Shown here piece by piece: positions 19,300 through 35,300 of a DNA stretch of 64,000 bases (positions are counted from its first letter, which is position 1; each line of letters begins with the position of its first letter). A program made the translations under genes and the position numbers. The notes beneath the pieces were generated by a model. It searched no databases. It was not told where the DNA came from and worked only from the letters and a program-made list of their open reading frames with translations. Location of the stretch: the NCBI GenBank assembly GCA_963849325.1, contig CAWKHF010000004.1, forward strand, positions 288,001-352,000. Direction: 5' to 3'. Source of the DNA: an uncultured Planctomycetota bacterium. GTDB taxonomy: Bacteria; Planctomycetota; Planctomycetia; Gemmatales; Gemmataceae.

Positions 19300-19443
19300 G
19301 ATTCCACCTCCTTGCAGATGAGTCCAGCCGTTCGGAGTTTTCGCCATCCCGTTGCGTGAGGAAAGTCGAGCCGGCCGGCGCTTCGTGTCCTTGCCTGGGG
19401 ACCACGTTGCGGGATGTGGTCCCGTTGTTTCCACGCCTCAAAC

Positions 19444-19480
19444 AAAAAAAGCCCCTTCCGCGCCGTTACGCGAAAGAGGC
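19444..19480 (-). terminator. Intrinsic terminator inside the csrA leader
   Basis: Minus strand GCCTCTTTCGCG-TAACGG-CGCGGAAGGGGC-TTTTTTT. Confidence 0.7.
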
Positions 19481-19525
19481 TGCCATAGCCTGCTCAACCT
19501 GCCCCTCACGAGCAGGAGTGAATTT

Positions 19526-19554
19526 TTTGTACCCGAAAAGCTCCCCTCTGTCAA
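19526..19554 (-). promoter_or_regulatory. sigma70 promoter upstream of the csrA leader
   Basis: Minus strand TTGACA-N17-TACAAA. Confidence 0.65.
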
Positions 19555-19684
19555 ACCGAATTTTTCTTCCCGCGCGGACGCACTCCTGCCGCCGAACGAG
19601 GCGGGAGTACAATGCTCCCACGTGCGCCGTCCTCGGACGCCTTGTTCGACCTCAACGAATCGATCGCCCAAAGGAGGGACCGGC

Positions 19685-20888
19685 ATGAAACGTCTCCGCT
19701 GTGCCGCCGCGCTGCTGTTTGTCCTGGCCGCCGTTGCCCCGCTGCGAACGGCCGAGAAGGAGGACGGCTTCGTGCCGATGTTCAACGGCAAGGATCTCGA
19801 CGGCTGGGTGAACGTCAACTGCGCTCCCGGCACCTTCTTCGTCAAGGGCGGGGAGATCATCACCACCGGTAAGCCGACCGGCTTTTTGCGCACCGCGAAG
19901 CAATACGAGAACTTCATCGCCGAGTTCGAGTGGATGCACGTCAACAAAAAGGAGGTCGGCAACTCCGGTTTCTTCGTCTGGGCCGACCCGCTGCCGGCGG
20001 TGGGTACGCCGTACACGCGCGGCATCGAGGTGCAGGTGCTGGTCAACCTCGAAAAGGAAGGCGCTTACACTAGCCACGGCGATCTGTTCAGCATCCACGG
20101 CGCCACCTGCAAGCCGGATCGGCCGCACCCGCAAGGCTGGTCGGCGCTGCCTGCCCAGCGAGAGGCGCTGCAAGGGCGGCGGCGAATGGAACCATTACAA
20201 GGTCATCGCCAGGGACGGCGTTCTCAAGCTGCACGTCAATGGCAAGGAGGTGTCCGGCCTCAGCGACTGCAAACCGCGCAAGGGGTATTTGGCCCTGGAG
20301 TCGGAGGGCGCGGAGTGCCACTTCCGCAATCTCCGGATCAAGGAATTGCCTTCCAGCAATCCAACGCCCGAGGAAACTACCGAGGTGGCGAAAGGGTTCC
20401 ACAAACTGTACACCGGCCTCGACCTGGCGGGATGGAAGGCAGACGCCGCGGTTGCGGAGCACTGGCGGCCGCGCAATGGCATCCTGCACGGCGATGGCAA
20501 GGGCGCGGCGCTGACCACCGACAAGGAATTCGGCGATGCGGAATTCCTCGTCGATTTTCGTTCGCCAAGGAAGGGCGCGGCGGCGCCCGGTGTCTTCCTC
20601 TTCCGCGGAAACGAGGAAAAGGGAGTGCGGTTGTCGCTAACCAACGGCAAGGTCATCGTGCGTTCGCCGGGGGGAGAGGCAACGCCGGAGATCTCCGCTC
20701 TCAAGCCTGCCGGGCAGTGGAACCGGCTGCGCGTCTCCCTGAAGGACAACGCGATCCGCGTGGCGATCAACGGCAAGGACGCCGCGGAAGCGACGGTCGC
20801 CGACGTGTCGTCGAGAGGGACGTTTGCGCTCCGCCCCGAGGGGGAGATGGATTTCATGAACCTGTTTGTTCGGGAATTGGGGAAATAA
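19685..20888 (+). CDS. DUF1080 (3-keto-disaccharide hydrolase-like) tandem-domain protein (frameshift near 20145)
   Basis: Signal peptide; FVPMFNGKDLDGW, GNSGFF, GIEVQV; then GYLALESEG..CHFRNLRIKEL and GQWNRLRV in the second frame. Confidence 0.85.
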
Positions 20889-20905
20889 CTCGGGAGAGAA
20901 CAAAC

Positions 20906-22761
20906 ATGGATGTGCGGCGGTGCGGGGTGATGGGGCTGTCGGACGGGTCGGTTCTCTGGCGAGTGTGGGCGTCGCGCGTCGGGCGAGTGGACCTGGTGCT
21001 CCTCGACGGTGCGCAGCGCCGCACTTATCCGATGCAGGCGGAAGAGCATGGCTTCTTTCATTGCAGCTTGCCGGACGTGCGCGAGGGACAGCGCTACGCC
21101 TATCGGCTGAACAATGGGCCAGAGCGTCCTGACCCTCGTTCGTTGTGGCAGCCGGAGGGCGTTCACAACCCGTCGGCCGTCGTCCGTCCCGAGCGCTTCG
21201 CCTGGACCGACCACGGTTGGAAGGGCGTGCCGCGCGAAGACCTGGTGTTCTACGAGCTGCACGTCGGCACCTTCACTGCGGAGGGCACCTTCGCGTCCGT
21301 CATCCCGCGTTTACCTCAGTTGCGTGAACTGGGCGTGACGGCCGTGGAACTGATGCCGGTCGCGCAGTTTCCCGGCAGCCGCAATTGGGGCTACGATGGC
21401 GTCCATCTGTACGCGGCGCAGAACAGCTATGGCGGACCCTACGGTCTGCAACGGCTGGTGGACGCTTGCCACGCGGCCGGGCTGGCGGTCTTCCTCGACG
21501 TGGTGTACAACCATCTCGGGCCGGAGGGCAACTATCTCGCCGAGTTCGGAACGTACTTCACCGAACGCTATCACACCTCCTGGGGCTCCGCCCTCAACCT
21601 CGATGGACCCGGCTCCGACCCCGTGCGCGACTTCCTCCTCGATAACGTCCGTCTCTGGATCGAAGATTTTCACTTCGACGGCCTGCGCCTGGACGCCGTC
21701 CACGCCATTTTCGATTCGCGTCCGCGCCACATCCTCCGCGAGATCAAGGAGGTCGCGGACGCCGCGGCGCGTCCAGGACAACGCATTCACATCATCGCGG
21801 AGAGCCTGGTGAACGACGTGCGCATGGTGCGGGCGCCCGAGGGCGGCGGCCACGGTCTCGACGCCGAATGGAACGAGGATTTTCACCACGCGCTGCACGC
21901 TTACCTCAGCGGCGAGCGGCACGGCAAATATGGCGACTTCGGCGCCACCTCATGCTTGTCGCGCGTGCTGGAGCACACCTTCCACCTCAACGGGATTTAC
22001 AGCGTCCACCGCGGCCGGCGCTGGGCGCCCCCGACGAGGGGCTGCCGGGCGATCGCTTCGTCATCGGTATCCAGAACCACGACCACGTCGGCAACCGGCC
22101 GCGCGGCGACCGGCTGGCGGCGCTGGTTGGCCCGGCGCAGCAGCGCCTGTCCGCCGCCCTGATGCTGCTGTCGCCGTACCTGCCGCTGTTGTTCATGGGC
22201 GAGGAGTACGGCGAGACGAACCCCTTTCCCTTCTTCTGCTCGTTCCACAACGGCCCGTTGATCGAGAATGTCCGCCGCGGACGCCGGCGCGATTACGGCT
22301 TCGCGGCGGGGGCGGAGATGGCCGACCCGCAGGCCGAAGCGACGTTCGCCGCCGCGCGCTTGAGCTGGTCGTGGCCGGAGAATTCGCTTCGGGCCGGACT
22401 GCGTCGTCTGTACCACGATTTGCTGGCGGCGCGACGGCGTTGGCCGGCCCTGCGCGACTTCACGCACCGCAGCGTTCGCCTACTGCCGGACGAGAACGCG
22501 GCGGCCGTCCTGCATCTGGTGCGCGGCATCGGCGGCGCGGCGGCGGAGCTTCACGCCTACTTCAACTTGACGGAACAGCCCCAGCCGTTGCCGAATGCGA
22601 TGGGTGAGGAGAGGAGTTTGTTATTCAGCTCGGAGGCGGAGCGCTATCACGGCAGCCGGACGAACGCGATGGTCCCGAAGCAGCTGAAACCTTATGAATG
22701 TGTCGCGCTTGGGCCGGCCGCGTGGGGGATGCCGATTGTCGAAGAACAACATCTCGTTTAG
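20906..22761 (+). CDS. treZ: Malto-oligosyltrehalose trehalohydrolase, GH13 (frameshift near 22025)
   Basis: [70 protein letters not shown]. Confidence 0.93.
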
Positions 22762-22823
22762 CCGCGACGCGCAGCAGAGCGCGGGAGCCTCCCGCGCTCC
22801 GCTGCGCGTCGCGGCTAAACGAG
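22753..22823. repeat. Palindromic REP-like element (copy 2 of the 11567 family)
   Basis: CTCGTTTAGCCGCGACGCGCAGCAGAGCGCGGGAG...CTCCCGCGCTCCGCTGCGCGTCGCGGCTAAACGAG. Confidence 0.9.
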
Positions 22824-22862
22824 TAACTTGTTTTTCTCCAAACCCAAACCATGCGCGTTAGG

Positions 22863-24181
22863 TCAACTTCGGCAGCACGCCGCCGCCGCAGAAGTCCGGG
22901 TTGCCGAAGCGCTCGATGCGATGGCCCATGCCGTGCGCCAGCGACAGCAGCAGCCGATTGTGCGGCAGCTTGCGGATACTTGATCGAGCGGCCCATGCGG
23001 AAATCCAGGCCGTTGCCGACCAGCACGAACGGGATGTTGTCGAGCGTGTGCGAATTGCCCTTGCCCAGCTCGTTGGTCCAGACCAGCAGCGTGTTGTCGA
23101 GCAGGCTGCCGCCGCCGCCCGGCTCCGGCGTCTCGGCCAAGCGCTTCGCCAGGTAGGCCAACTGCTCGCAATACCACTTGTTGATCTGCGTCAGCTTGTC
23201 CTGGGCGACCTTGTCGCTGTCGGGGCTGTGCGACAGTTCGTGATGGCCCTCGTTGATCTTCAGCCAGCGCATCCGCGCCTGACCGACCGAGTTGGTGAAT
23301 TGCAGCGTCGCCACGCGGGCGAAGTCGGCGGCGAAGCTGTTGACCATCAGGTCGATCTGCATCTTGCTGATGCGCGGGATGTTGTCGTTCTCCTTCTTCA
23401 CGCCCGGTTCCAGCTCGGGAACGGCGTGACCGACGTCCTGGTTCTTGCTCGCCTTCAGCTCCTGCTCCATCTCGCGGACGAACGTGGCGTGTTCGTCCAG
23501 CAGTCGGCGATCCTCGGCGCTGACGGCGGAGCTGACCTTCCGCAGGTCGTCCTGCAGGTCGTCGAGAATGCTCTTCAGGCTCTCCTGGTCCTTGACCCGG
23601 CCGTACAGCTTGGCGAACATCTGGTAGGGATCGTCGATCGGCGCGATCGGCTTGTTCGGCCCGGCGTAGACCATGCGCGTCCAGGTGTCGGCGCGATCGG
23701 GCACCATCACGCCGAACTCCAGCGAGCCGAAGCGCGTGCGCGTCGCCGGGTTGGCCTGCAGATGGTTCTTGATCTCCTGGTCGATGGAGAGACCGCTGGC
23801 CCAGCCGGCCGGCGTGTGCGAGCCGCCCTGGATGTTGCCGGGGAACAGCTCGATGCCGGTCAGCAGGCAGCCGATGCCGCGCATGTGGTTGTCGCCGTCG
23901 CCGCGGACCTTGTCGCAGACGCCGTGCAGGATCAGCGTGCGGTCCTTGAACGGCTCCAGCGGCTTGAGGCTGTCCTTGAGCGTCGTCAACGTTCCCTTCC
24001 TCGTCGGGCCAGAAGGCGGAGGGCACGACGCCGTTGGGGCTGAACAGGACGACCAGCCGCTGTTTGCGCCGCTGTTGGTTGGCGAAGCCGAGGCTGGGCA
24101 GGTTCAGGATGAACGGCAGGGCCGCCGCGCCGATCCCCAGGTCGCGGATGAACTCGCGTCGCGTGCTTGTTGCACGGTCAC
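22863..24181 (-). CDS. DUF1552 domain protein, Tat-like N-terminus, frameshifted
   Basis: [10 protein letters not shown]...[50 protein letters not shown]. Confidence 0.85.
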
Positions 24182-24182
24182 G

Positions 24183-26639
24183 TCACTCCTCCGGAATACG
24201 TCAGGTCTACCGTATGTCAGGCCCGTGTTGATTCTATCGACTCGCCGTCCCGGCTCACGCGGCACCGGCGGCTTAGGCTTTTCCTCATCGGGAATCCAGG
24301 CGGACTCCGCGACGATCTCCACCATCAGCTTACGGACATTGTAGCGATTGTCGGATACGAAGGACCGCCGCAGGTCCGACGAGCTTCGTGCAGGTCCGTA
24401 GGCACGGATCGGCTGCTTGACCAGGTAGTGGAACAGCTGCTCGACAAAGGCGTCGTGCGTCTCCTCGCTGTCGGCCAGGAACGCGGCCAGATCGCGGACG
24501 CCGGTGAACTTCCTCATCTTCGCCGCTGCGCGTCTGGTAGATGCCCGTGGCGTCGATGGGCCGCTCTTTTTCCTGGTCGCGGTAGCGGCCGATGGCGTCG
24601 AAGTGCTCCAGCGTGAAGCCGAGCGGGTTAATCATGCCGTGGCACGTCTGACACGCCTGCGGCCGCGTTTGCAAGCTCGACGCGCTCGCGCGTGGTCAGC
24701 CGTGGGTGCAGGTCCGGCGGCAACGGGGTGAAGGCCTCCGGCGGCGGCTGGAGCGTCCGGCCCAGGACGCTGCGCGACAGGAAGACGCCGCGATGGATCG
24801 GCGAACTGGTCGCCGTGTAGGCGAAGGTCGCCATCAGGTAGGGGTGCGTAAGCACGCCGGCACGCTCGCCGGCTTTCGCCGCGACCTTTCTGGAACGGCG
24901 CATCGGGCGGCAGATCGCCGCCGTAGAATCTGGCCAGCCGGCCGTTGAGATACAGGGAATCCGCGAGCAGCAGTTGGCGGAAGTCCGATGCCTCGCTCCA
25001 GAGCACGTCCTCCAGGAACAACTCCAGCGAGGTGCGCAGGTCCGAGGCGACCGCCTGAGTCGAAGCCGGGGATAGCTGTGCGGAGTCCTTGGACAGGTCG
25101 GGGACCTGATCGACCTTGCAGCCACTGCAGGAAGAACTCGCGGAGCTTGGCCCGGGTCCGCAGGTCGGCGACCATGCGCTCGGCCTGGTGCAGCCACCTG
25201 CTCGCGGGTGGCACAGCTCGGCCGCTCGCCGCCGCTTGCAGAAGCTCGGCGATCGGGCAGCGAATCCCACAGTCCGAAGGAGAGTCCGCGACGCCACGTC
25301 GTAAGCGTCTGGCCCGCCGCCAATCTCGCGGTAGAGGAAACGCGGCGACTTGAGGACGAGCAGCACAACGCGCTTGACGGCCGTTTCCAGATCGCGGGCG
25401 GCTTCGAATCTGGTGATCGACGTAGAGGCGCTTCTGCTCGTCGCGTGAGCGGCCGGCGAAACGCCCGTCTCGGCGAAGCGTACGACAGAACTCGCGGAGA
25501 CGCGCCTTGCGATCCGGCGGCATCGTCCGCGCACGCCGGCCAACTCCGCCAGGCGGGCGACGACGTAGTCCGCAACCTCGATGGCCGCATCGGTCGTGGC
25601 CTGTTCCCACGCCTTGGAGATCGACGTGCCGCGCTCGTAGCCGACGCTGCGGTCGTCCGGCGGAAACGGCGTGGCGACGACGAACGCAACGGGAGAGGCA
25701 GTTCGGCGTCAGGTTTCGCTGCGGGATCACCTCCGCCGTCCGCTGCGGCGGCTTCCACGCCAGCGCGATCGACGCCTTGACTTGCGGGCGGCTTGCCCTT
25801 CTTGTTCTTCGAGTCGTCCACGCCCTGCTTGGCCTTGGAGAACTCCAGCCGCAGCGGATAGACGCGCCCGCCCAGCAGGAAGATCGAGGCGCGATACTCG
25901 GTATCGTTGCCCGACTTCACCCAGGCGTCGATCAGCGGCCGTTTGCGTGTCGTTGACCCACAGCCGGGCGGCGTGCTCGGTGCGGACGATGAATTCGTAA
26001 CTCGCCGGTGTCCGGGGCCAGGACCGAGCCCGTCCAGCGGATCGAGAATTGATTGGCGTCGAACTTCTTGGGGTCCGGGCCGGACGTCGCCGAAGTCGAA
26101 GCGGACCTCGGGATCGACGCGCTCCAGGACGCGGTCGTTGCCGCGGAAGCGCCGGGACTTGAAATACTCGCCGCGCAGGCCGCGTTGCTGGTCCCAGTGG
26201 CTGGGCGTGCGGAAGCTGCCGATCAGGTCGGCGACGGCGTTGCCGATACTGGCGGACGGTGAGGCGCGACAGCTCGATGCGCGGCGGCTTGTTGCGGGCC
26301 TGCGCGGTCTTGGAGTAGAAGGCATCGTAGATGTAGGCGGCGACTTTCTGGGCGTCTTCGCCGCTGCATTTGTCGTCGGTGTCCTTGGGCATGGTCCGGG
26401 CGATGAGGCGGGTGAGCTGGGAAACGGAGCGATCCCCGGCCAGCGGACGCGGGTAATCATCAATCGGTGCCTTCTCCCGACGCTCCATGACACGAGGCGC
26501 ATTGCTGCTTGTAAATCTGTTCTCCGCTACGACCTTCCGCGGCGAGGACGCGGGGGGCCAGCATGCTCAGAGAGCACAGCAGGGCCATCCAGGGTAGGTG
26601 GCGGAGAGGGGACACGGTTGGCGGATTCGTGTGGATCAT
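24183..26639 (-). CDS. Cytochrome c / PA14 / DUF1592-DUF1588 family protein, heavily frameshifted
   Basis: Pieces across frames: signal peptide + IYKQQCASCHG, GLRGEYF (PA14), LSFGLWDSLPD, RAGVLTHPYL, SSPIHRGVF, CQTCHGMINPLGFTLEHFDAIGR. The usual DUF1552 partner follows. 3' end approximate. Confidence 0.82.
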
Positions 26640-26997
26640 GGAGACCGATTCGGGTAGGCCGCTACGAAATCAGGAGGTCGGAAGGCAGGTCAACACTCAC
26701 CGAGGCGCGTCGTCCGCGAACTGGAGGGAAAAATGTCCGGGATGCGGCGCCGAGTGCTGATAAATAGTTTGAAGGCTCGGGGGACGAATGTCAAGGGGAG
26801 AGACGGAAAAGGTCCATTCCTCCCATCCCGTTGTTGCATCGACTGTCTGTTGCCGAAGAGAGACGAAGTTGGTAGGTGCCGCCAGCCGAGCGGCACGGCG
26901 GAACGATACAGCTATCCGTAACCGGCTCACGCGGAGCATGGCGTCGAAGCACGATACACCATCATTCACGTGGTCGGTCTGCTTGTATGTTCCATTT

Positions 26998-27160
26998 CAC
27001 TCCCGATTTCTTGTCGGGAGTATCCTCGACAGGGGAGTCGCGAGGAGGTCTTTCGGTCTGCTGAGGTACGACCTCTTGCTGCAGATTGACCCCTCCGCGT
27101 CGGACCCAGCGCTGGTTACATCTTGAGGCACTGACCTCTGATCACAAGCTTCCGCTCACG
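26998..27160 (+). ncRNA. Predicted IS110 bridge RNA
   Basis: 5' hairpin ACTCCCGA/TCGGGAGT. Target loop with guides TCGGTCTGCT (27053-27062) and GCTGCAG (27078-27084) around hairpin GAGGT/ACCTC. Donor loop with guides GTTACATCT (27115-27123) and ACAAG (27144-27148) around GAGG/CCTC. All four guides match the reconstructed target and donor. RNA ends approximate. Confidence 0.85.
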
Positions 27161-27233
27161 CCGAGCTACGCCGGAGGAGCCTCGCGGCTACGGCCCCATC
27201 GTCTCCCTCTTCACTCCACATTCCGAGGTTCCC

Positions 27234-29042
27234 ATGCTACCACAACACGCTCCCGCTCCGCAATCGCCGCGACGCATCGGCGTCGGCATCGACACCTCCC
27301 GCTACGGCCATTACGCCGTCTTCCTCACGCGACGACCTCCAGCCCGCCGCCGACGAACTCTCCTTCCCCGAGTCCGCCGCCGGCTACGCCCTCTTCCGCC
27401 AACGCCTCGCAAGCGCATCGTCCAGCGCTACGGCGCCGTGCACTTCGTCGTCCGTCTCGACGTGGCCGGACCCGTATGCCGACAACCTGCTCCACTTCCT
27501 GCACCAACTCGGCCACGCCGCCAGCCGACGCCCGCCAACGCCGCCCGCCGTTGGCCCTCACCCTCTCCTGCGGCGATCCGCAACGCAACAAGAACTACCG
27601 CGCCGCCCTCTTCGGCAGCCAGAAGTCCGATCCCGTCGAGGCCCGCGCCGCCGCACGCTTCGCCCTCACCGAGCGAGCCACGCAGTGACAAGCCATTGTC
27701 CCTGCGAACTCCGCATCCTCCGCCAGGTCGCCGGCCGACTCCAGGCCGTCGTCCGCCAACGCACCCGCCTCCTCAACCAGTTCCATCATCTGCTGGCCTT
27801 GACCTTCCCCGAACTGGCCCTGCTCACCAAGGACCTCGCCGCCGGCTGGGTCCTCGAACTGGTCCACCGCTACCCACCGCCGCCGCGCCTGGCCCAGGCC
27901 ACGACCCGGCCGACCTGGCCGCCATCCCCTATCTGCCCGATGACCATGGCGACGCCGCTGCTCGCAACACGCCCAGCACCTCCATCGCCTCGCTGGACGG
28001 CGCGGCCGTCGAGGAGCTGGTGCGCGACCAGGTCCGCCAACTCCGCGACAGTCGGCGCGCGGCAAAAACGCCTGGAATACCTGCTGGTTTCCGCCTATCA
28101 CGCCCTGCCCCAGACCAACCACCTCGACACCATCCCCGGCATCGGCGCCGTCACGGCCGCCGTGCTGACCGCCTTCATCGTCGACATCGATCGCTTCGCC
28201 ACGCCGGGCAAGCTGGTCGCTTATTTCGGCGTCCTGCCCATCGAGGCGTCCAGCGGCGTGGACCGCGACGGCCAGGCCGCGTTCGCCGCGGCGTTGGGTC
28301 ATGAGCCGGCGCGGCAACGACCTGGTGCGTCGCTATCTGTGGATGGCGGCCTTGAGCGCCATCCGCTTCAACCCGGCGGTGCGGGCGTTGTACGCCCGTG
28401 TCGTGGCCAAGCATCCCCAGCACAAGGCGGTCGCCGTCGGCCACGCCATGCGCAAGCTGTTGCACCTGGTCTTCGCCATCTGCAAGAGCGGCCGGCCGTT
28501 CGACCCCGACCACTATCCCTGGCAGACGCCGGCTCACGTCGACGGAGAGTGACAATGACATGTCAGTGGATGCACCGAAGCCAGTGACAAGACCGTGTCA
28601 GTCGAAAGCCAGGCCGCGGGCCACAAGCCGGAAGCTGAGCCGGCTGCGGACAGTGGTCACCGCGGCCTGTGCCGACAGCGTAGCCGAGACGGCCGCGGTC
28701 GGCGAGAGCAACGCCGTCGATTTCGCCCACGTCAAGAGGCAACTGCCGCTGGCCCAGGTGCTCGATCAACTGGGTCTGTCGGCGCGCCTGCGCGGCAGCG
28801 GTCCGCAGCGCCGCGGTGCCTGTCCGCTGCATCGCGGCGATGGCCGCGGCCGGACGTTCAGCGTCAACCTGGAGGCCAACGTCTTCCAGTGCTTCGACAA
28901 GACGTGCGGTCAGAAGGGCGACGTGATCGACCTGTGGGCGGCGTTGCATGGCTTGTCGCTGCGGGAGGCGGCGTTGGACCTGGTGCGGACGTTTGGGCTG
29001 GAGCCTGCGCCACGCACCGGAACAGAGAAGAGGAACGGTTAA
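27234..29042 (+). CDS. IS110 recombinase/transposase with apparent C-terminal CHC2 zinc-finger domain (multiple frameshifts)
   Basis: RIGVGIDTSRYGH, KSDPVEA, LDTIPGIG, FATPGKLVAYFGVLPIEASSG, GNDLVRRYLWMAA, HAMRKLLHLVFAI; then CPLH...FSVN...FQCFDKTCGQKGDVIDL. Confidence 0.88.
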
Positions 29043-29204
29043 GGAACGGTTGACCGCGTCGGTGGAGAGAATCCGCCCTTGGGTCGGGGCCGTCCGCATG
29101 TGCGCAGACAGGACAGAGGAAACCGTTCTTACCGGCCGTCATCACGGGGACGGGGCTTGACATTCATCGTTACATCTGCAGCGGATTGTTCGGCGCTACC
29201 CCCT

Positions 29205-29684
29205 TCAGAAAACAAGAGGCTTACCGACCCCCAAGGAACACTCGACAAGCGCCGCCATCTGAGCGGCAAACTCACGGACCAACCCTGCCATCCCCTGCTG
29301 GACGCACGACATCGCTTGTAGCGCTCCCACCTCGGACGGCAAACTTTTCACCTCTTCGACGGCGAGGAAGTCTCCTGCATGAGTGCCATTGTACAGCACC
29401 TTGGAGAGCAGCAGCGGGAACGTCTCGGCCTGCCGCTCCAACTCCGCTCGCAGGGCGGCGACCAGCGCGATGTTGCCGATGCGGTGGTGCAGCAACACGC
29501 CCAGCTCGTGCTCGCAGGCGCGCTCGAGTTGCCATCGGTCAAAGGCGAGCTGGACCTCAAGGTCGTCGCTGCCGCAGAGCAGGCTCCCATCGGCCGAGAC
29601 GGACAGGTTACAGCCGGGCGGCGGTGGTTCTCGCAAGCGTCCCCGCTCGAAGCAGTCGCAGTACACAACCGCGTCCAACCCCAT
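29205..29684 (-). CDS. Hypothetical protein carried as a putative integron gene cassette
   Basis: 159-aa ORF MGLDAVVYCDCFERG...KPLVF. Preceded closely by GTTCGGC (29710-29704) and an RBS-like GGAG; followed immediately by the attC-like site. Confidence 0.7.
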   Translation of the reverse strand: MGLDAVVYCDCFERGRLREPPPPGCNLSVSADGSLLCGSDDLEVQLAFDRWQLERACEHELGVLLHHRIGNIALVAALRAELERQAETFPLLLSKVLYNGTHAGDFLAVEEVKSLPSEVGALQAMSCVQQGMAGLVREFAAQMAALVECSLGVGKPLVF

Positions 29685-29715
29685 CTCTGCTTCGCTCCGC
29701 CTCGCCGAACAGTGA

Positions 29716-31474
29716 TTAGTCTGAGGCGGGGCGTCTCGCGGCCTCATTCGTGGTGGTCCCTCGTGGACCCCGTTCGGAAGTTTGCCCTTCCTCACGCCAC
29801 GTTGCGCCTCCGCCGGCCTCCCACGGTTGTCCCACGAACTCCTCTATTCTGAAGGCTCCCATGTCCCGGCACAAGCACCAAACCGCCTCGTCCGCCCCCA
29901 GGCAACCCGCCACGCCCGTGGCACCGCAACGCCGCCGTCACACGCCCACTCCCGCCGACGACGGCTACCACGAATCCCTGCCCATTCAGCACGGCCACGC
30001 GGCCGGCATCGACGTGGGCTCACGCACGCACGGGGTCGCTGCCCCCGCAGCAGACGGCACCCTGGACGTGGCCTGCTTCGACACCTACACCGAGGGACTA
30101 CGCGCCCTGGCCGCCTGGCTCCATGCCCACGCGGTCACCACCGTGGCCCTGGAGGCCACCGGCATTTACGGCGATCCCCTCTTCGATCTGCTCCCAAGCC
30201 AGGGCTTTGACGTCATCCATGTCAACCCCGCCTACACCGCCCAACTCCAGGGACGGCCCAAGACCGACAAGCTCGACTGCCAGTGGATCCAACGCCTGCA
30301 CGCCCACGGCCTGCTGCCCGCCTCCTTTCGGCCCGCCGCCGATGTCGCCGTACTCCGCGTCTACCTCCGTCAGCGGGCCGAACTCGTCCGCGCCGGTGCC
30401 CGACACATCCAGCACATGCAGAAGGCGTTGGAGTTAATGAACGTCAAGCTGACCGAGGTGGTCAGCGACGTGACGAGCTGGACCGGCCTGAAGATCATCC
30501 AGGCCATCCTGGACGGTCAACGCGACCCGCTGACGCTGGCGCGACTGCGGAACAAGCACTGCAAGAACAGCATCGATACCTTCGCGCGTGCCCTGCAGGG
30601 CAGTTGGCGTGACGAACACGTGCTGACGTTGCGGCAGGCGTTAGCATCGTGGCAGCACTATCAGGCTCAGCAACGGGAGTTGGAGGAAGCGATCGCCCGC
30701 CACCTCCATCGGATGAAAAAGACGACCGCGCTGCCGCCGCTGCTGCCCAAGCCGCGACGGCGGAGCCGCGCGGCCAACGAACCACGCTTCGACGTGCGAA
30801 CCGCCCTGTACTACGTGACCGGCGTGGACTTGACCGAGTTGGACGGGATCGCCGACGTGACGGCCTTGGTGGTCGTCAGCGAGATCGGCCTGGACATGAG
30901 CCGTTTCCCCTCCGCGAAGCACTTCTGCGCCTGGTTGGGGTTGTGCCCGCGGGTGAAGAAATCCGGAGGTCGGGTCTTGTCGAGTCGGACGCGCAAGGGC
31001 AAGGGCGCCGCGGCGCGGGCCTTGTGTCTGGCGGCGCGGTCGTTGTGGCGCAGTCCAACGGCGTTGGGTGCTTTGCTGCGGCGGTGGAAGGCCCGCTTGG
31101 GGGCGCCTGCGGCGATAACCGCGGTAGCGCACCGAGCTGGCTCGGCTGCTGTATCAAACCTTGAAGACGGGGGCGTTGCCGGCCCGCGAGACGGCGGCGG
31201 CGTATGCGGCCCGCCAGCGGGAGCAAGCGGTGGCAACGTTGCGGAAGAAGGCGTTGCGTCTGGGTCTGCGCGTGGTAGCGACGAGTGAAATCGTGGAGAG
31301 CGTAGCGTCGCCGCCATGAACGATAGCGGGTGCGGCATGGCCCGAGGTTCGCCCAGGGAGACGAGCAAACAAGGCCCGATCACAGCAAGCGACAGCGAGG
31401 GAGACCGCTTCGGTTCACGGCGGAGCGTCCTTGAGTGCGCACAGCAGTCAAAGATAGAATAAGTCTTCTGAAGA
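29716..31474 (+). mobile_element. Second IS110-family element (different subgroup); boundaries inferred
   Basis: Transposase inside, structured left non-coding end, possible duplicated GA core at 29714-29715 and 31473-31474. Confidence 0.6.
29861..31319 (+). CDS. IS110-family transposase (frameshift near 31135)
   Basis: AAGIDVG, VALEATGIY, KTDKLDCQWI (DEDD tetrad), SEIGLDMSRFPSAKHFCAWLGLCP..KKSGG, AITAVAH; tail LARLLYQTL...LRKKA in the next frame. Confidence 0.92.
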
Positions 31475-31503
31475 AGCTCCTCGGAAGGCCGCGCAGATGA
31501 GAC

Positions 31504-31535
31504 CGTGATAGGCTGCGCCTGCGCAGCCTATCACG
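31504..31535. repeat. Palindrome right of the second IS
   Basis: CGTGATAGGCTGCGC-CT-GCGCAGCCTATCACG. Confidence 0.7.
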
Positions 31536-32323
31536 AAACAACGCCGACCTCGGAAAACGCCATTACTTCTTGGATGGACTAGGGTTGCGCTAAATGATGC
31601 GCAATCTTCTTCCCCTGCTAGGCCGCACAGCGGTCACAGAGCGAGGACTTTGCTATCTCGCGCTCGCGCGCGATAGCATGGGAAAGCGCTTTCCCACTGC
31701 TGTCGAGGATGGACCCCAAAGACAGCATCCTTTGACCGCGCACACCCCGCTCCATCCGGTAAGCCCGACTCTATCCGCTGGCCAACGGCATGGCAAGAAA
31801 AAACCGACACGATTTCCGCGGTTGGGATAGGGTGCGTGCCTTCGGGTAGTTCCTGTTTGCCCTCGTTGCCCAGCTCGACTTCCCGTCCGGTCAGGGACCG
31901 GCCGAGAAGCAGCGCTTCGCCCACGGACGTTGCCCAGCCGAGCGGGGCAACGAGGGTCTACGGCCCGACACTCCAACGATCCGAAATGATGGAGCACTCG
32001 ATCGGAAAGCGCAGCTGCCTTGAGACTCTGGCCAAGTGGCATAGACGGCAGTTGCCCTCGCGCAAACGGAATGCCCGCAAGCTTTTGGGGGAGTCGGGTG
32101 TGTTTGCCCCCCCTCTCCGCCCCGGCAAGGTGACAGACAGACGCAGACGGACGGACAGCAACGACCCCAAACGATTTGCCCACCCGCGACTTCTGGCGGT
32201 TCGTCGAATCGCGCGGCTCTTCGGGCCACTGCGAAACGAAAACGCCGGTGAGCGCGTGACACGCCGGTCACGCGGGTGCCTAAGGGGGGATAGGCACGTC
32301 TAACCGTGGAAAGGAGTTCGGTC

Positions 32324-35300
32324 ATGGTCCTCCTCTGTCCGCGTCTGGTCCTCCCGGCACTGCCGGTCTTCCTGGGGCTGGCGCTGTCCGCCGCACCGCT
32401 CTCCGCGGCCGCTCCGCCGGCGTCCGCGAGCTGCGCATCCAGCAGGTCGGCGATGTCACCTATTTCCACGTCCAGTTCGCCACGCCGCGAGGGATGACGC
32501 CGGGCGGCGAGACGCGCCTGGTGCCGCAGGACGGCCAGGCCAACCACGTCTGCCGGCGCAGCGATGATACGAGCGGCCAGGCCGCTTCTCCTCGGGGTGT
32601 CCAGCCCATCGAGACAAAAAGCGACACTCCTCCCGGTCGCCAGCCCTCGCCGGCGCCTCGTCGCCCTGTGCCGGTCGATGGCCTGGAGTTCACCGGCCGT
32701 CTGAATGGCAAGGGCGAGATCCCGTTCGTCCTGCTGTACACGATGGAGAATCCGCTGCCACGCCTGGGACTCTTCCGTTCGCAGATATTGCGTGGCCGGC
32801 AGCGCCTCAACTGGGTCGAAACGCCCGTCGTGCTCGATTTTCGCAAGGCCGAGAAGGTTGCTCTGCCCGCCGAGGCCAGGGAACGCGCAGACCGAAGCGG
32901 GCTAAGAAGAAAGCCGCTCCAATGGCCGGTGCGAGATGACCTCGAAGGATTGTGGGCCGTGGCCCAGAATGACGAGTTTGGCCGACTCCAAGCCGAGGTG
33001 ACGGAGTTCGGTTTCTACGCCTTCGCCATCCGGGCCGGCGCAGCAAGTATCACGTGCCCGTCAACCTTCACTGGAATCGCAGCATTCCTCCTCGCGGCTT
33101 CGCCAGGCCTCCCATTGATGCGCAACTGTACGAAACCACCACCGGAGCGGCCGCCATCGCCGAGTCGCTGCAATTGCAGCGCATGAGCAACGCCAACTTC
33201 CGCGACAACGGCAAGCGCAGCGTCGCCATCGACAAGATCGAGGGCATCGACATCGCCGAGCACCCGTGGGACAAGATGATGGGCGACAAGAAGCCCGCCC
33301 CCGAGCCGATGGCCCGCCTCATCCCCGACGACAACTACTACCTGCATTTCAAGAACATCCGCCAGTTGATCGAGTTCTCCGACCTGCTCGACCATTGGGG
33401 CACGAACCTCATCCGCGCCTACGAGGTCCACAGCCGCGATCACCGCCTCAAGGATCGCTATCAGCAACAACTCTGCCTGCGGAGCACGGAGCTGGGCCGG
33501 AAGTTCGGCCCGCTGGTGCTGCGCGGCGTCGCCGTCACCGGCAGCGACGGCTACCTGCGCGAAGGCTCCGACGTGGCGATCATCTTCCACGTCGCCAACC
33601 GTCCGCTGTTCCTCGGCGCCGTGCAGCCGTTTATCGAGGAGGCGCGCAAGAAGTTCGGCGACCAGCTCAAGGAGAGCAAGGCCGAGGTCAACGGCGTCAC
33701 CATCGAGAGCTTCACGACGCCGCTGCGCGAGGTCAGCCTGTACCGGGCGGTTGTCGAGGAGTACGTCATCTACGCCAACTCGCCGACCGGCCTGCGGCGC
33801 ATCCTCGACACCTACCAGGGCCGGCGCAAGGCGCTGGCCGACGCCCGCGATTTCCAGTACATGCGGACCATCTTCCGCTACGACGACAAGGACGAGGCCG
33901 GCTTCGCCTACCTGTCCGACGCCTTCATCCGTCAGCTGGTCGGCCCGGCCAGCAAGATCAAGGAGAAGCGACGCCTCGAAGCGCTGACGAGCATGTACAT
34001 GCTGACGGAGGGCGCCCTGTACCACGCCTGGCAGTCCGGCAAGCCGCCCGCCGACTATGACGCCCTGCTCGACGCCGCCGGGCTACGGCCGGAGGAGGTC
34101 TATCTGCCCGAGGGCCGGCCGCTGGTCTGGAACGCCGCCGCGACAGGTCGCCGTTTCCGACGTGTACAACACTCTCCACTTCGCCACGCCGTTGATCGAG
34201 CTGCCCATCGAGCAAATCACCGAGGCGGAGGCGCAGGCGTACCGCCAGTTCCGCGCTGCAGTATCTCGGCCTGTGGCGGCAATACTTCGATCCCATCGGT
34301 ATGCGCATCGCCCTCGACGATAAGCAGCGTCCGGCTCGATACCTACATCCTGCCGCTGGTAGCCAACAGTCGTTACAACGAGTTGCGCCGCGTCACCGGC
34401 GACGGCGTGGTTCGCCTGGACCTCGGCAGCATCGCGCCGCAAACGATCGCGCAGTTCATGATGCACCTGTCGCCCAACGTCGGCGACCGCGGCGGCGCAC
34501 TGGGCCTGCTCGGTTCGGGCGGTTCGGCCGGCGATCTCACTTCGCTCGTCGCCTGGGCGCTGGACCCGGTCGGCAAGTGGGTGCTCGTTCGCGCCGACGA
34601 CAGCCCGGTCTACGGTCAGCTGGCCGACCTGCTGGAACGTATCGACGAAGGACAAAATGTCGATGCCGAACGCATTGCTCGTCTGGTATTTCAGATGCCG
34701 GTCATGGTCGGCATGGACGTGAAGAACTCGTTGACGTTCGCCGTCGCCCTCGCTGCCGCGCGGACGAGCGTGATGAAGTCGCTCCCCGGCGCCTTGACCT
34801 GGGAGCCGCTGGAAAAACCCTACAAAGACGTGTCGATCGTGCAGATCAAGGCGACGCCAGCCGGCATGCGGCAGCGTACCGCTTACTCCAGCGAACACCG
34901 GCAAAGACCCGTTCCTGCCCGCCGTGTATTACGCCATGATCGACGGCGCTTTTTACCTCACGTTCAGCGAGCCGATGCTTCGCGACCTCATCGACCGCTC
35001 GCAGGAGAAGCGCGAGGGCGAGTCCCAGACGGTCGAGGTCAATAGCTCGCTGTACGTCTCGCCCGGCGCGGCGCAATTGACGCGCGGACTGGTTCAGAAA
35101 TATCTGGAGAAACAGGTCCACGACCAGGCGCTGGCGAGCGCGCCCGTGTGGTATCCCCTCTACCACAGCGGCCTTCTCGCCGAAGGGACGAGCCGCGCCG
35201 AGGCAAACACTCTGGCCGAGAGATATTTCGGTTTTGTTCCGGTCAGTCCGGACGGCGCCGCTTTCGTCTACGACCGGCGCACGGACGAGGTGCGCAACGA

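Follow-up and report, generated by a model that had tools for sequence, protein, structure and literature searches.

An IS110-family element with a putative bridge RNA and a zinc-ribbon recombinase in a REP-like repeat of an uncultured Gemmataceae bacterium

What lies between positions 26984 and 29177 of a 64,000-nucleotide (nt) stretch of DNA from an uncultured planctomycete? The stretch—hereafter the window—covers positions 288,001 to 352,000 of contig 4 (CAWKHF010000004.1, forward strand) of assembly GCA_963849325.1, from a Planctomycetota bacterium of the family Gemmataceae. The 2,194 bp in question, counting one copy of a CT core at the right end, comprise a noncoding left end, a gene that joins a recombinase to a primase-type zinc ribbon, and a right end with a conserved hairpin, all set within a dispersed repeat (Table 1). 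We conclude that they are almost certainly an insertion sequence (IS) of the IS110 family and IS110 subgroup, equipped with a bridge RNA and a zinc-ribbon recombinase. A preliminary description, made from the letters of the window alone, had proposed an IS621-type bridge RNA with target and donor loops, a CT core, and a specificity of its own. Every string it named lies where it was placed, and this part of the proposal is upheld by covariation, RNA structure, and recombinase homology; its further statements, that the system is "complete" and "recently inserted," are not supported in that form, as described below.

The left flank of the element ends in TCGGTCTG-CT (26974-26983), the first element bases are TGTAT (from 26984), and the right terminus GTTACAT-CT is followed by GCAGC. 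Excising 26984-29177 regenerates a homolog of uninterrupted copies of the dispersed repeat, such as the one on contig 5 at 67215 (...cgcgtggccGGTCTGCTGCAGCgcctggttcg). These terminal and flanking sequences recur in two predicted loops of the noncoding left end. In loop 1, TCGGTCTGCT on the left is identical to the left flank plus core at all 10 positions, and GCTGCAG on the right is the reverse complement of CT+GCAGC (7/7). Loop 2 holds GTTACATCT, identical to the right end plus core (9/9) and extending to GTTACATCTTG, which agrees with 11 of 11 bases of the joined ends, together with ACAAG on its other side (5/5 match). The CT core takes part in all four of these pairings, and most of the loci of relatives have CT flanking both ends. 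The 10-mer occurs at exactly two sites in the 64-kb window, the flank and the loop (mean 0.21 in shuffles, with 2 of 100 reaching two), as does the 9-mer, at the end and in the loop (mean 0.12; 0 of 100). Taken alone, the 7-mer is unremarkable (5 matches vs. 13.5 expected) and the 5-mer trivial.

Does the left end have the makings of a structured RNA? A consensus fold of 11 left ends from different genomes (RNAalifold) consists of a 5' hairpin, a small hairpin, and two modules of the form stem/internal loop/stem, and all four guide strings fall in its internal loops. Double-sided changes occur in 17 of its 39 pairs, and pairs 19-23/36-40, in the region of the 5' hairpin, show compensatory changes. 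In a further test structure of 26 pairs, none of them within the loops, 91.2% of cells pair, compared with 35.1-62.8% when the partners are slid; 12 of the pairs carry double-sided changes, a number that 0 of 500 shuffles reach. A covariance model made from the 11 aligned left ends finds one match in each of 80 of the 85 sources, upstream of the gene and on the gene's strand; of the five sources that gave none, at least two (L040 and L088) retain too little upstream sequence to hold the RNA. That the left noncoding end encodes a two-loop bridge RNA of ~165 nt is thus a strongly supported prediction.

Do the putative guides change together with the sites that they would read? Of 201 genomes from the order, 16, the window's own included, hold a match to the 608-amino acid (aa) protein encoded by a paralog on contig 7 of the window's assembly; among species-representative genomes, 188 stretches were matched, 107 encode relatives, and 80 loci were kept. 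These relatives are mostly Planctomycetota, with the zinc ribbon covered in most, and the named ones are Gemmataceae and Gemmatales records, fitting a planctomycete origin. Guides were read by alignment column and element boundaries were placed independently of the target guides—right ends with an nhmmer profile of 20 right ends, left ends by taking, upstream of the RNA, the closest conserved terminal motif. In genomes with multiple copies, the boundaries were also seen from where the copies cease to be alike. Leaving aside two minus-strand matches (L021, which duplicates L082, and L027, which has no right end), the 80 matches gave 78 loci, 69 of them with a usable boundary and flank on the left and 61 on the right.

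The right target guide agrees with the five bases to the right of the element at 5/5 positions in 51 of the 61 loci, at 4/5 in five, and at 3/5 in five; there are 31 distinct right guides, guides exchanged between loci score a mean of only 1.45 of 5, and none of 20,000 permutations reaches the observed score. On the left, where 43 distinct guides were compared with the seven bases left of the core in 69 loci, the mean is 5.06 of 7 vs. 2.37 across guides, and again 0 of 20,000 permutations attain the observed score. The mismatches on this flank mostly affect the one or two positions most distant from the core, or are one-base shifts in C-runs. Genomes with several copies make the relation plain to the eye: in one, eight copies have the guides ...GTCCC-CT and AGAAA-AG and sit at sites reading ...GTCCC-CT followed by TTTCT, and in another, four copies have CACCAAC-CT and GCCCG-AG and sit at CCAAC-CT followed by CGGGC. 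A further example comes from L046 and L047, which share a genome and 95.7% identity (blastn): their right target guides differ by a single base (GCCGCAG vs. GCTGCAG), and their right flanks differ correspondingly (GCGGC vs. GCAGC). Guide–flank covariation in homologs, one of the points on which the preliminary description had staked its reading, therefore held on both flanks. Both sides of the predicted loop 1 match, and covary with, the two flanks of the element.

The donor guides point the same way. Variants of the left donor guide (GTTGCAT, GGTACAT, GGCACAT, GTGACAT, and GTTCCAT) are each mirrored by the same variant at the right end, and six loci in which the right donor guide reads CACGAG (L096, L078, L095, L086, L094, and L100) have an element that starts with CGTAT, not TGTAT. 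This test had less variation to draw on because the element ends are conserved, and its independence is lower than that of the target test, as end homology had itself been used to locate the ends. A distant subgroup—L068, L069, and L073, with right ends GTGACATTT—apparently has AT or TT, not CT, as its core, and its guide positions shift accordingly, if not fully consistently; L069 has AT at three of the four core positions.

The two ends of the element may also form a promoter when they meet. TTGACA near the right end and TATGTT near the left would come to stand 17 nt apart across the joined ends, and we propose from this arrangement that they act as a promoter only once the ends are joined. 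The −35 hexamer agrees with TTGACA at five or more of six positions in 51 of the 59 loci with both ends defined, and the −10 hexamer agrees with TATAAT at four or more of six, A2 and T6 included, in 52 of the 59. The spacing, as sequence geometry, fits the RNA start near 26998 that had been proposed for the window, and a joined-end promoter has been described for IS110 elements (PMC11208160, accessible part). Between gene and terminus, nearly all family members have the subterminal hairpin CCGTC-ATCAC...-GACGG, ~25-40 nt in from the right end, and the ATCAC of its loop is shared with the 3' side of the donor loop.

What kind of protein would use this RNA? The contig 7 paralog is an uninterrupted frame of 608 codons with three Pfam domains: DEDD_Tnp_IS110 (PF01548), Transposase_20 (PF02371), and Zn_ribbon_DnaG (PF01807), the last at 36.5 bits against a cut-off of 24.9. 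Its recombinase part matches IS621 (8wt6, E 1.4e-14) and ISCro4 by sequence. In 608-aa numbering, S241-G242 of IS621 aligns with S348-G349 and D102 and D105 align with D143 and E146, and the counterparts of D11 and E60 are probably D32 and D87 (catalytic-residue numbers are those given in the accessible part of PMC11208158; the numbering of the 8wt6 chain is the paper's plus 2). Among 44 sequences reaching down to 36% identity, the first Asp, D78, D134, S339-G340, C527, C550, and C555 are invariant and H530 is kept in at least 90% (599-aa numbering, which is the 608-aa numbering minus nine). An AlphaFold model (mean predicted local distance difference test score 84.1) is confident at residues 16-425 and 490-592, which are joined by a low-confidence linker at 429-488. 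The IS621 and ISCro4 complexes head the Foldseek matches, with template modeling scores of 0.73-0.78 (relative to the target), and Nop5-family proteins come next. The family and its contig 7 member thus look like DEDD/serine recombinases of the IS621 type, which by homology would be catalytically competent.

The C-terminal 119 residues align with the zinc-binding domains of the primase DnaG (1d0q, E 5.2e-6; 2au3, 6e-5), and the zinc ligands are conserved across relatives of 36 to 100% identity. How common is this fusion? In a large protein collection, at least 2,134 proteins match at E <= 1e-10 (8,000 candidates scored), and among the matches listed, 117 of 120 carry all three Pfam domains, with "transposase" as the sole given name. 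The recombinase–zinc-ribbon fusion is an abundant architecture. We did not find it in the IS110 and bridge-RNA literature searched, whose supplementary ortholog tables may list such proteins: the words "zinc," "fusion," "fused," and "primase" are absent from bioRxiv 10.1101/2024.06.21.599552 and 10.64898/2026.08.14.744561, and in PMC11208160, where "zinc" is counted twice, the sole passage displayed refers to zinc-finger nucleases.

Into what kind of sequence did the element insert? Its flanks belong to a dispersed repeat of ~100 nt, of which a profile built from 16 seeds (nhmmer) finds at least 41 copies in the genome. The fold of the repeat is a long, imperfectly paired hairpin, and its two sequence subtypes preserve the stem by compensating changes; Rfam gave no match on five intact copies. 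Profile positions 10-71 match contig 4 at 314921-314983 and stop exactly at the insertion point (window base 26983). The natural target of the element here is the 3' side of this hairpin repeat, which resembles repetitive extragenic palindromic (REP) sequences. When the best 14-mer of each of the 41 copies was scored against the target predicted from the guides, 2 copies had no mismatch, 17 had one, 9 had two, 8 had three, 1 had four, and 1 had five; none was found in the remaining 3. Relatives in other genera are flanked by the same repeat context, GCAGCG...GGTTCGGC. A preference of targets for palindromes in general is not claimed: in reconstructed empty sites, tested with 50 nt of flank only, the median hairpin z was −0.89 (51 sites) vs. 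−0.27 in 85 controls (Mann–Whitney p = 0.052), a borderline result to which a single genome contributes five of the strongest sites.

Further pieces of the element lie scattered through the same genome. The contig 7 copy is 89% identical over element positions 266-2194; its left end, bridge RNA, and first codons are replaced by another IS110-family gene (L002 3411-4909, minus strand) followed by ~390 nt of noncoding sequence, which looks like one IS110-type element inserted into another. There is a solo 57-nt right end on contig 6 (48319-48375). On contig 12 (~1471958-1471982), the last 16 nt of a right end stand within a target repeat in place of TGCT, in what looks like the footprint of an imprecise loss. 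A 69-nt fragment of the left end alone occurs on contig 10 (225721-225789), with a flank that matches the repeat profile up to the exact insertion point. All four right ends found in the genome join their flank as GTTACATCT/GCAGC.

Table 1. Features of the IS110-family element and its insertion site (window positions)
Feature	Positions	Strand	Basis
Left part of REP-like repeat; last 10 bases are left target plus core	26921..26983	+	nhmmer profile
Whole IS110-family element	26984..29177	+	End homology with ~60 relatives and restored repeat
Putative −10 half of junction promoter, TATGTT	26986..26991	+	17 nt from TTGACA across joined ends
Predicted 5' stem-loop (26999-27021) and short second hairpin (27023-27036)	26999..27036	+	Minimum free energy fold
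Predicted target-binding module	27042..27095	+	Structure counts, alignment-column guides, covariation with flanks
Target module outer stem	27042-27050 with 27088-27095	+	
Left target guide; inner hairpin; right target guide	27053-27062; 27063-27075; 27078-27084	+	
Predicted donor-binding module	27100..27164	+	Consensus fold, structure counts, donor-guide variants
Donor module outer stems	27100-27111 with 27153-27164	+	
Left donor guide (match continues to 27125); inner hairpin; right donor guide	27115-27123; 27125-27138; 27144-27148	+	
Recombinase–CHC2 zinc-ribbon fusion gene	27234..29042	+	Pfam pieces and intact contig 7 paralog
DnaG-type CHC2 zinc-ribbon coding part	28700..29042	+	PF01807 in window:28398-29042, residues 111-202
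Conserved subterminal right-end hairpin, CCGTC-ATCACGGG-GACGG	29136..29153	+	In nearly all right ends compared
Putative −35 half of junction promoter, TTGACA	29157..29162	+	Same distance from end in relatives
Right terminus GTTACAT plus core CT; left donor sequence in joined form	29169..29177	+	
Right target GCAGC (29178-29182) plus right repeat part GCAGCGGATTGTTCGGC...	29178..29200	+	Homologous to GCAGCGCCTGGTTCGGC in uninterrupted repeats

Several observations weigh against a functional bridge-RNA element at this locus, or against particular guide assignments. The outer donor stem of the window copy has nonstandard pairs at 3 of its 7 outermost positions. Rfam 15, which may hold no bridge-RNA model, gave no match at E up to 1 in window 26000-32500. 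Some relatives depart from the expected guides: in L042 and L018 the core of the left target guide is GT and the DNA has CT; L043, L051/L052, and L101 are one base off in C-runs; L107 and L076 agree with the left flank at only 0/7 and 1/7 positions, possibly from a misplaced left boundary; L050, L055, L061, L078, and L086 reach only 3/5 on the right; and in the left donor guide, A or C commonly stands opposite T at the final core position. A scan of the linear sequence for sigma-70-type promoters returned 0 promoter-like sites, as is expected of a promoter that would arise only at the junction. Two perfect 14/14 targets stand empty in the genome, which has no second complete copy of the element, and these two facts together argue against current activity. 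The window's recombinase frame, moreover, is interrupted by 18 single inserted bases, and its pieces lie in three frames: Pfam recovers Transposase_20 fragments in two frames and the CHC2 zinc finger in the third, and the DEDD domain has no match in the window gene pieces. For the sequence as given, "complete" is therefore not supported.

Is the window copy a dead relic of a genuine bridge-RNA element, its 18 insertions being real mutations? We think this rather unlikely, and regard it as probable that the insertions are consensus errors of the assembly. The broken frame itself speaks for a relic, as do the two unoccupied targets and the truncated copies and solo ends elsewhere in the genome. 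Moreover, the 608-aa frame on contig 7 and a neighboring 512-aa IS110-family frame are intact in the same assembly, which means that assembly errors are not everywhere, and the density of long open reading frames is alike on all contigs (9.0-15.2 per 100 kb, a measure uninformative on assembly error). Natural decay, however, is expected to leave far more substitutions than indels, along with some deletions. When six copies were compared and the changes unique to each were counted, the window copy had 14 substitutions, 18 inserted bases, and no deleted base, whereas the corresponding figures were 81, 0, and 1 for the contig 7 copy, 92, 0, and 0 for L033, 66, 0, and 2 for L034, 14, 2, and 0 for L046, and 9, 0, and 0 for L047. 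All 31 guide bases of the window copy and their partners are still identical. Chromosomal genes nearby (window 19352-26639) are likewise split over several frames—a cytochrome c/PSD4/PSCyt3 gene at 24628-26639 spans at least four, and an alpha-amylase gene is separated from its DUF3459 domain—which suggests indel errors in this region of the assembly; switches of frame in third-position GC content number 17 in 64 kb, a count that cannot separate frameshifts from adjacent genes. The genome is 84.69% complete in 14 contigs. It is the insertion-only pattern, the split neighboring genes, and this completeness that lead us to favor consensus errors over decay.

Two other explanations would dispense with a bridge RNA altogether. 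The repeated strings might act as DNA, for instance as subterminal protein-binding copies of the ends and target, and covariation of guides with flanks would also follow if such DNA copies were recognized by homology. We consider this very improbable: the strings sit in internal loops between stems whose pairing is maintained by double-sided changes (in 12 of 26 pairs, 0 of 500 shuffles), which implies selection for a single strand that folds; the guides are direct copies on the 5' side and reverse complements on the 3' side, the arrangement suited to pairing with both DNA strands; and the protein is structurally homologous to IS621, which was solved with its bridge RNA. Alternatively, the matches in the window might be due to chance, or have come about as a side effect of the element's insertion into a repeat with a fortuitous likeness to the left end, given that the 7-mer and 5-mer are singly unremarkable and the target is a multicopy repeat. 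The 10-mer and 9-mer occur only twice each in 64 kb, however, and the relation holds across 31 right-guide and 43 left-guide classes; coincidence can be virtually dismissed and is already refuted by the covariation results, unless the boundary calls there were systematically wrong.

If the element is, as we conclude, a bridge-RNA insertion sequence, how might it move? By homology with IS621, it would excise as a circle. Joining of the right end to the left across the CT core would set TTGACA 17 nt from TATGTT and switch on transcription of the bridge RNA and recombinase. Loop 1 would then pair with both strands of the target CGGTCTG-CT-GCAGC and loop 2 with the joined ends GTTACAT-CT-TGT, and a recombinase tetramer would exchange strands at the CT core. 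In this scheme it is transcription, the circle, and catalysis that we infer. As for when the window copy arrived, the preliminary description had called it recently inserted. The gene on its left flank is conserved in 10 of 10 same-genus genomes; its right flank has no match in any of the 10 and no empty orthologous site was found among them, so that the age of the insertion could not be set. The short branch of the window copy, with its 14 unique substitutions, would fit a young copy, and this is what is left of that claim.

IS1111-type elements carry their guide RNA on the 3' side and have subterminal inverted repeats. The present family falls outside that subgroup by this mark, with its RNA upstream of the gene in 80 of 80 matches. 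Elements of the IS1111 group that use seekRNAs likewise have a DEDD transposase and insert at specific sites under RNA guidance (PMC11187229, accessible part). The closer likeness is to IS621 of Escherichia coli and to ISCro4, as far as the accessible parts of PMC11208160 and PMC11208158 describe them. In common with these, the element has at its left end a predicted noncoding RNA in which a 5' stem-loop is accompanied by two internal loops, a variable first loop that would read the target and a conserved second loop that would read the donor, 5' loop sides that copy the top strand over 8-10 nt and 3' sides that are complementary over 5-7 nt, a CT core, a putative joined-end promoter, a natural target of the REP type, and RuvC-like, coiled-coil, and Tnp domains with a catalytic Ser-Gly. 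An earlier covariation analysis, also in PMC11208160, comprised 5,511 target–RNA pairs and 2,201 donor–RNA pairs. Unlike IS621, whose recombinase has 326 aa, the protein here has ~600 aa and a disordered linker of ~60 residues leading to the DnaG-type CHC2 zinc ribbon at its C terminus; the element measures 2.2 kb, the host is a planctomycete, Glu replaces D105, and over the fold alignment only 20-22% of residues are identical to IS621. ISPpu9 and ISPpu10 of Pseudomonas putida also enter a conserved multicopy palindromic intergenic repeat, which belongs to another repeat family in another host (PMC12288879 and bioRxiv 10.64898/2026.03.19.712850, accessible parts). The fusion at residues ~500-600 resembles DnaG (1d0q, 2au3) in its PF01807 fold and conserved Cys-His-Cys-Cys ligands, and differs in that no TOPRIM or helicase-binding domain follows the ribbon, which is attached to a recombinase instead, and in the last two cysteines, which form CX4C here vs. 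CX2C in both primases.

The surroundings of the element hold other mobile or repetitive sequences. A different IS110-family transposase gene (29750-31288, plus strand) lies 570 bp to the right, with an intact frame of 512 aa, the domains DEDD_Tnp_IS110 and Transposase_20, and ~67% identical copies on contigs 5 and 1; the bridge-RNA covariance model has no match near it. Just left of the target repeat, window 26869-26899 contains a second small palindromic unit, GGTAGGTGCCGC-N7-GCGGCAC, which forms many tandem arrays with a period of ~59-60 nt in the same-genus genome G096 (L127, L128). A reading of the 26-29-nt arrays of G096 as CRISPR arrays was ruled out, as the "spacers" are themselves repeated. 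Three copies of the target repeat (contig 12 at 879953, contig 5 at 954875, and contig 7 at 540415) have an identical GGATACTCATGAAGGCTCTTGAAGC... ~11 nt to the right of the target, which resembles the terminus of a different site-specific element for which this repeat also serves as a target.

What does this element add to the family? There is no new principle here, because the RNA-guided mechanism has been established since 2024; the novelty rests on the tethered primase-type zinc ribbon. Bridge recombinases are under development as programmable tools for DNA insertion, excision, and inversion, and few orthologs have been characterized so far (e.g., IS621, IS622, and ISCro4), as judged from literature accessible in part. 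To these the present work adds a well-supported natural family in which dozens of distinct target specificities can be read, a Gemmataceae family of REP-like repeats that serves as an insertion hot spot, and a conserved extra recombinase domain of a DNA-binding type, which may alter how DNA is handled. The zinc ribbon may serve these recombinases as a functional third module, an idea we put forward tentatively. Flexibly tethered, it may hold on to DNA that is single-stranded or folded into a hairpin, whether at palindromic targets or at the right-end hairpin; alternatively, it may couple recombination to replication. If the ribbon does prove functional, this abundant planctomycete and soil clade would constitute a distinct class of bridge recombinases, with properties that IS621 lacks.

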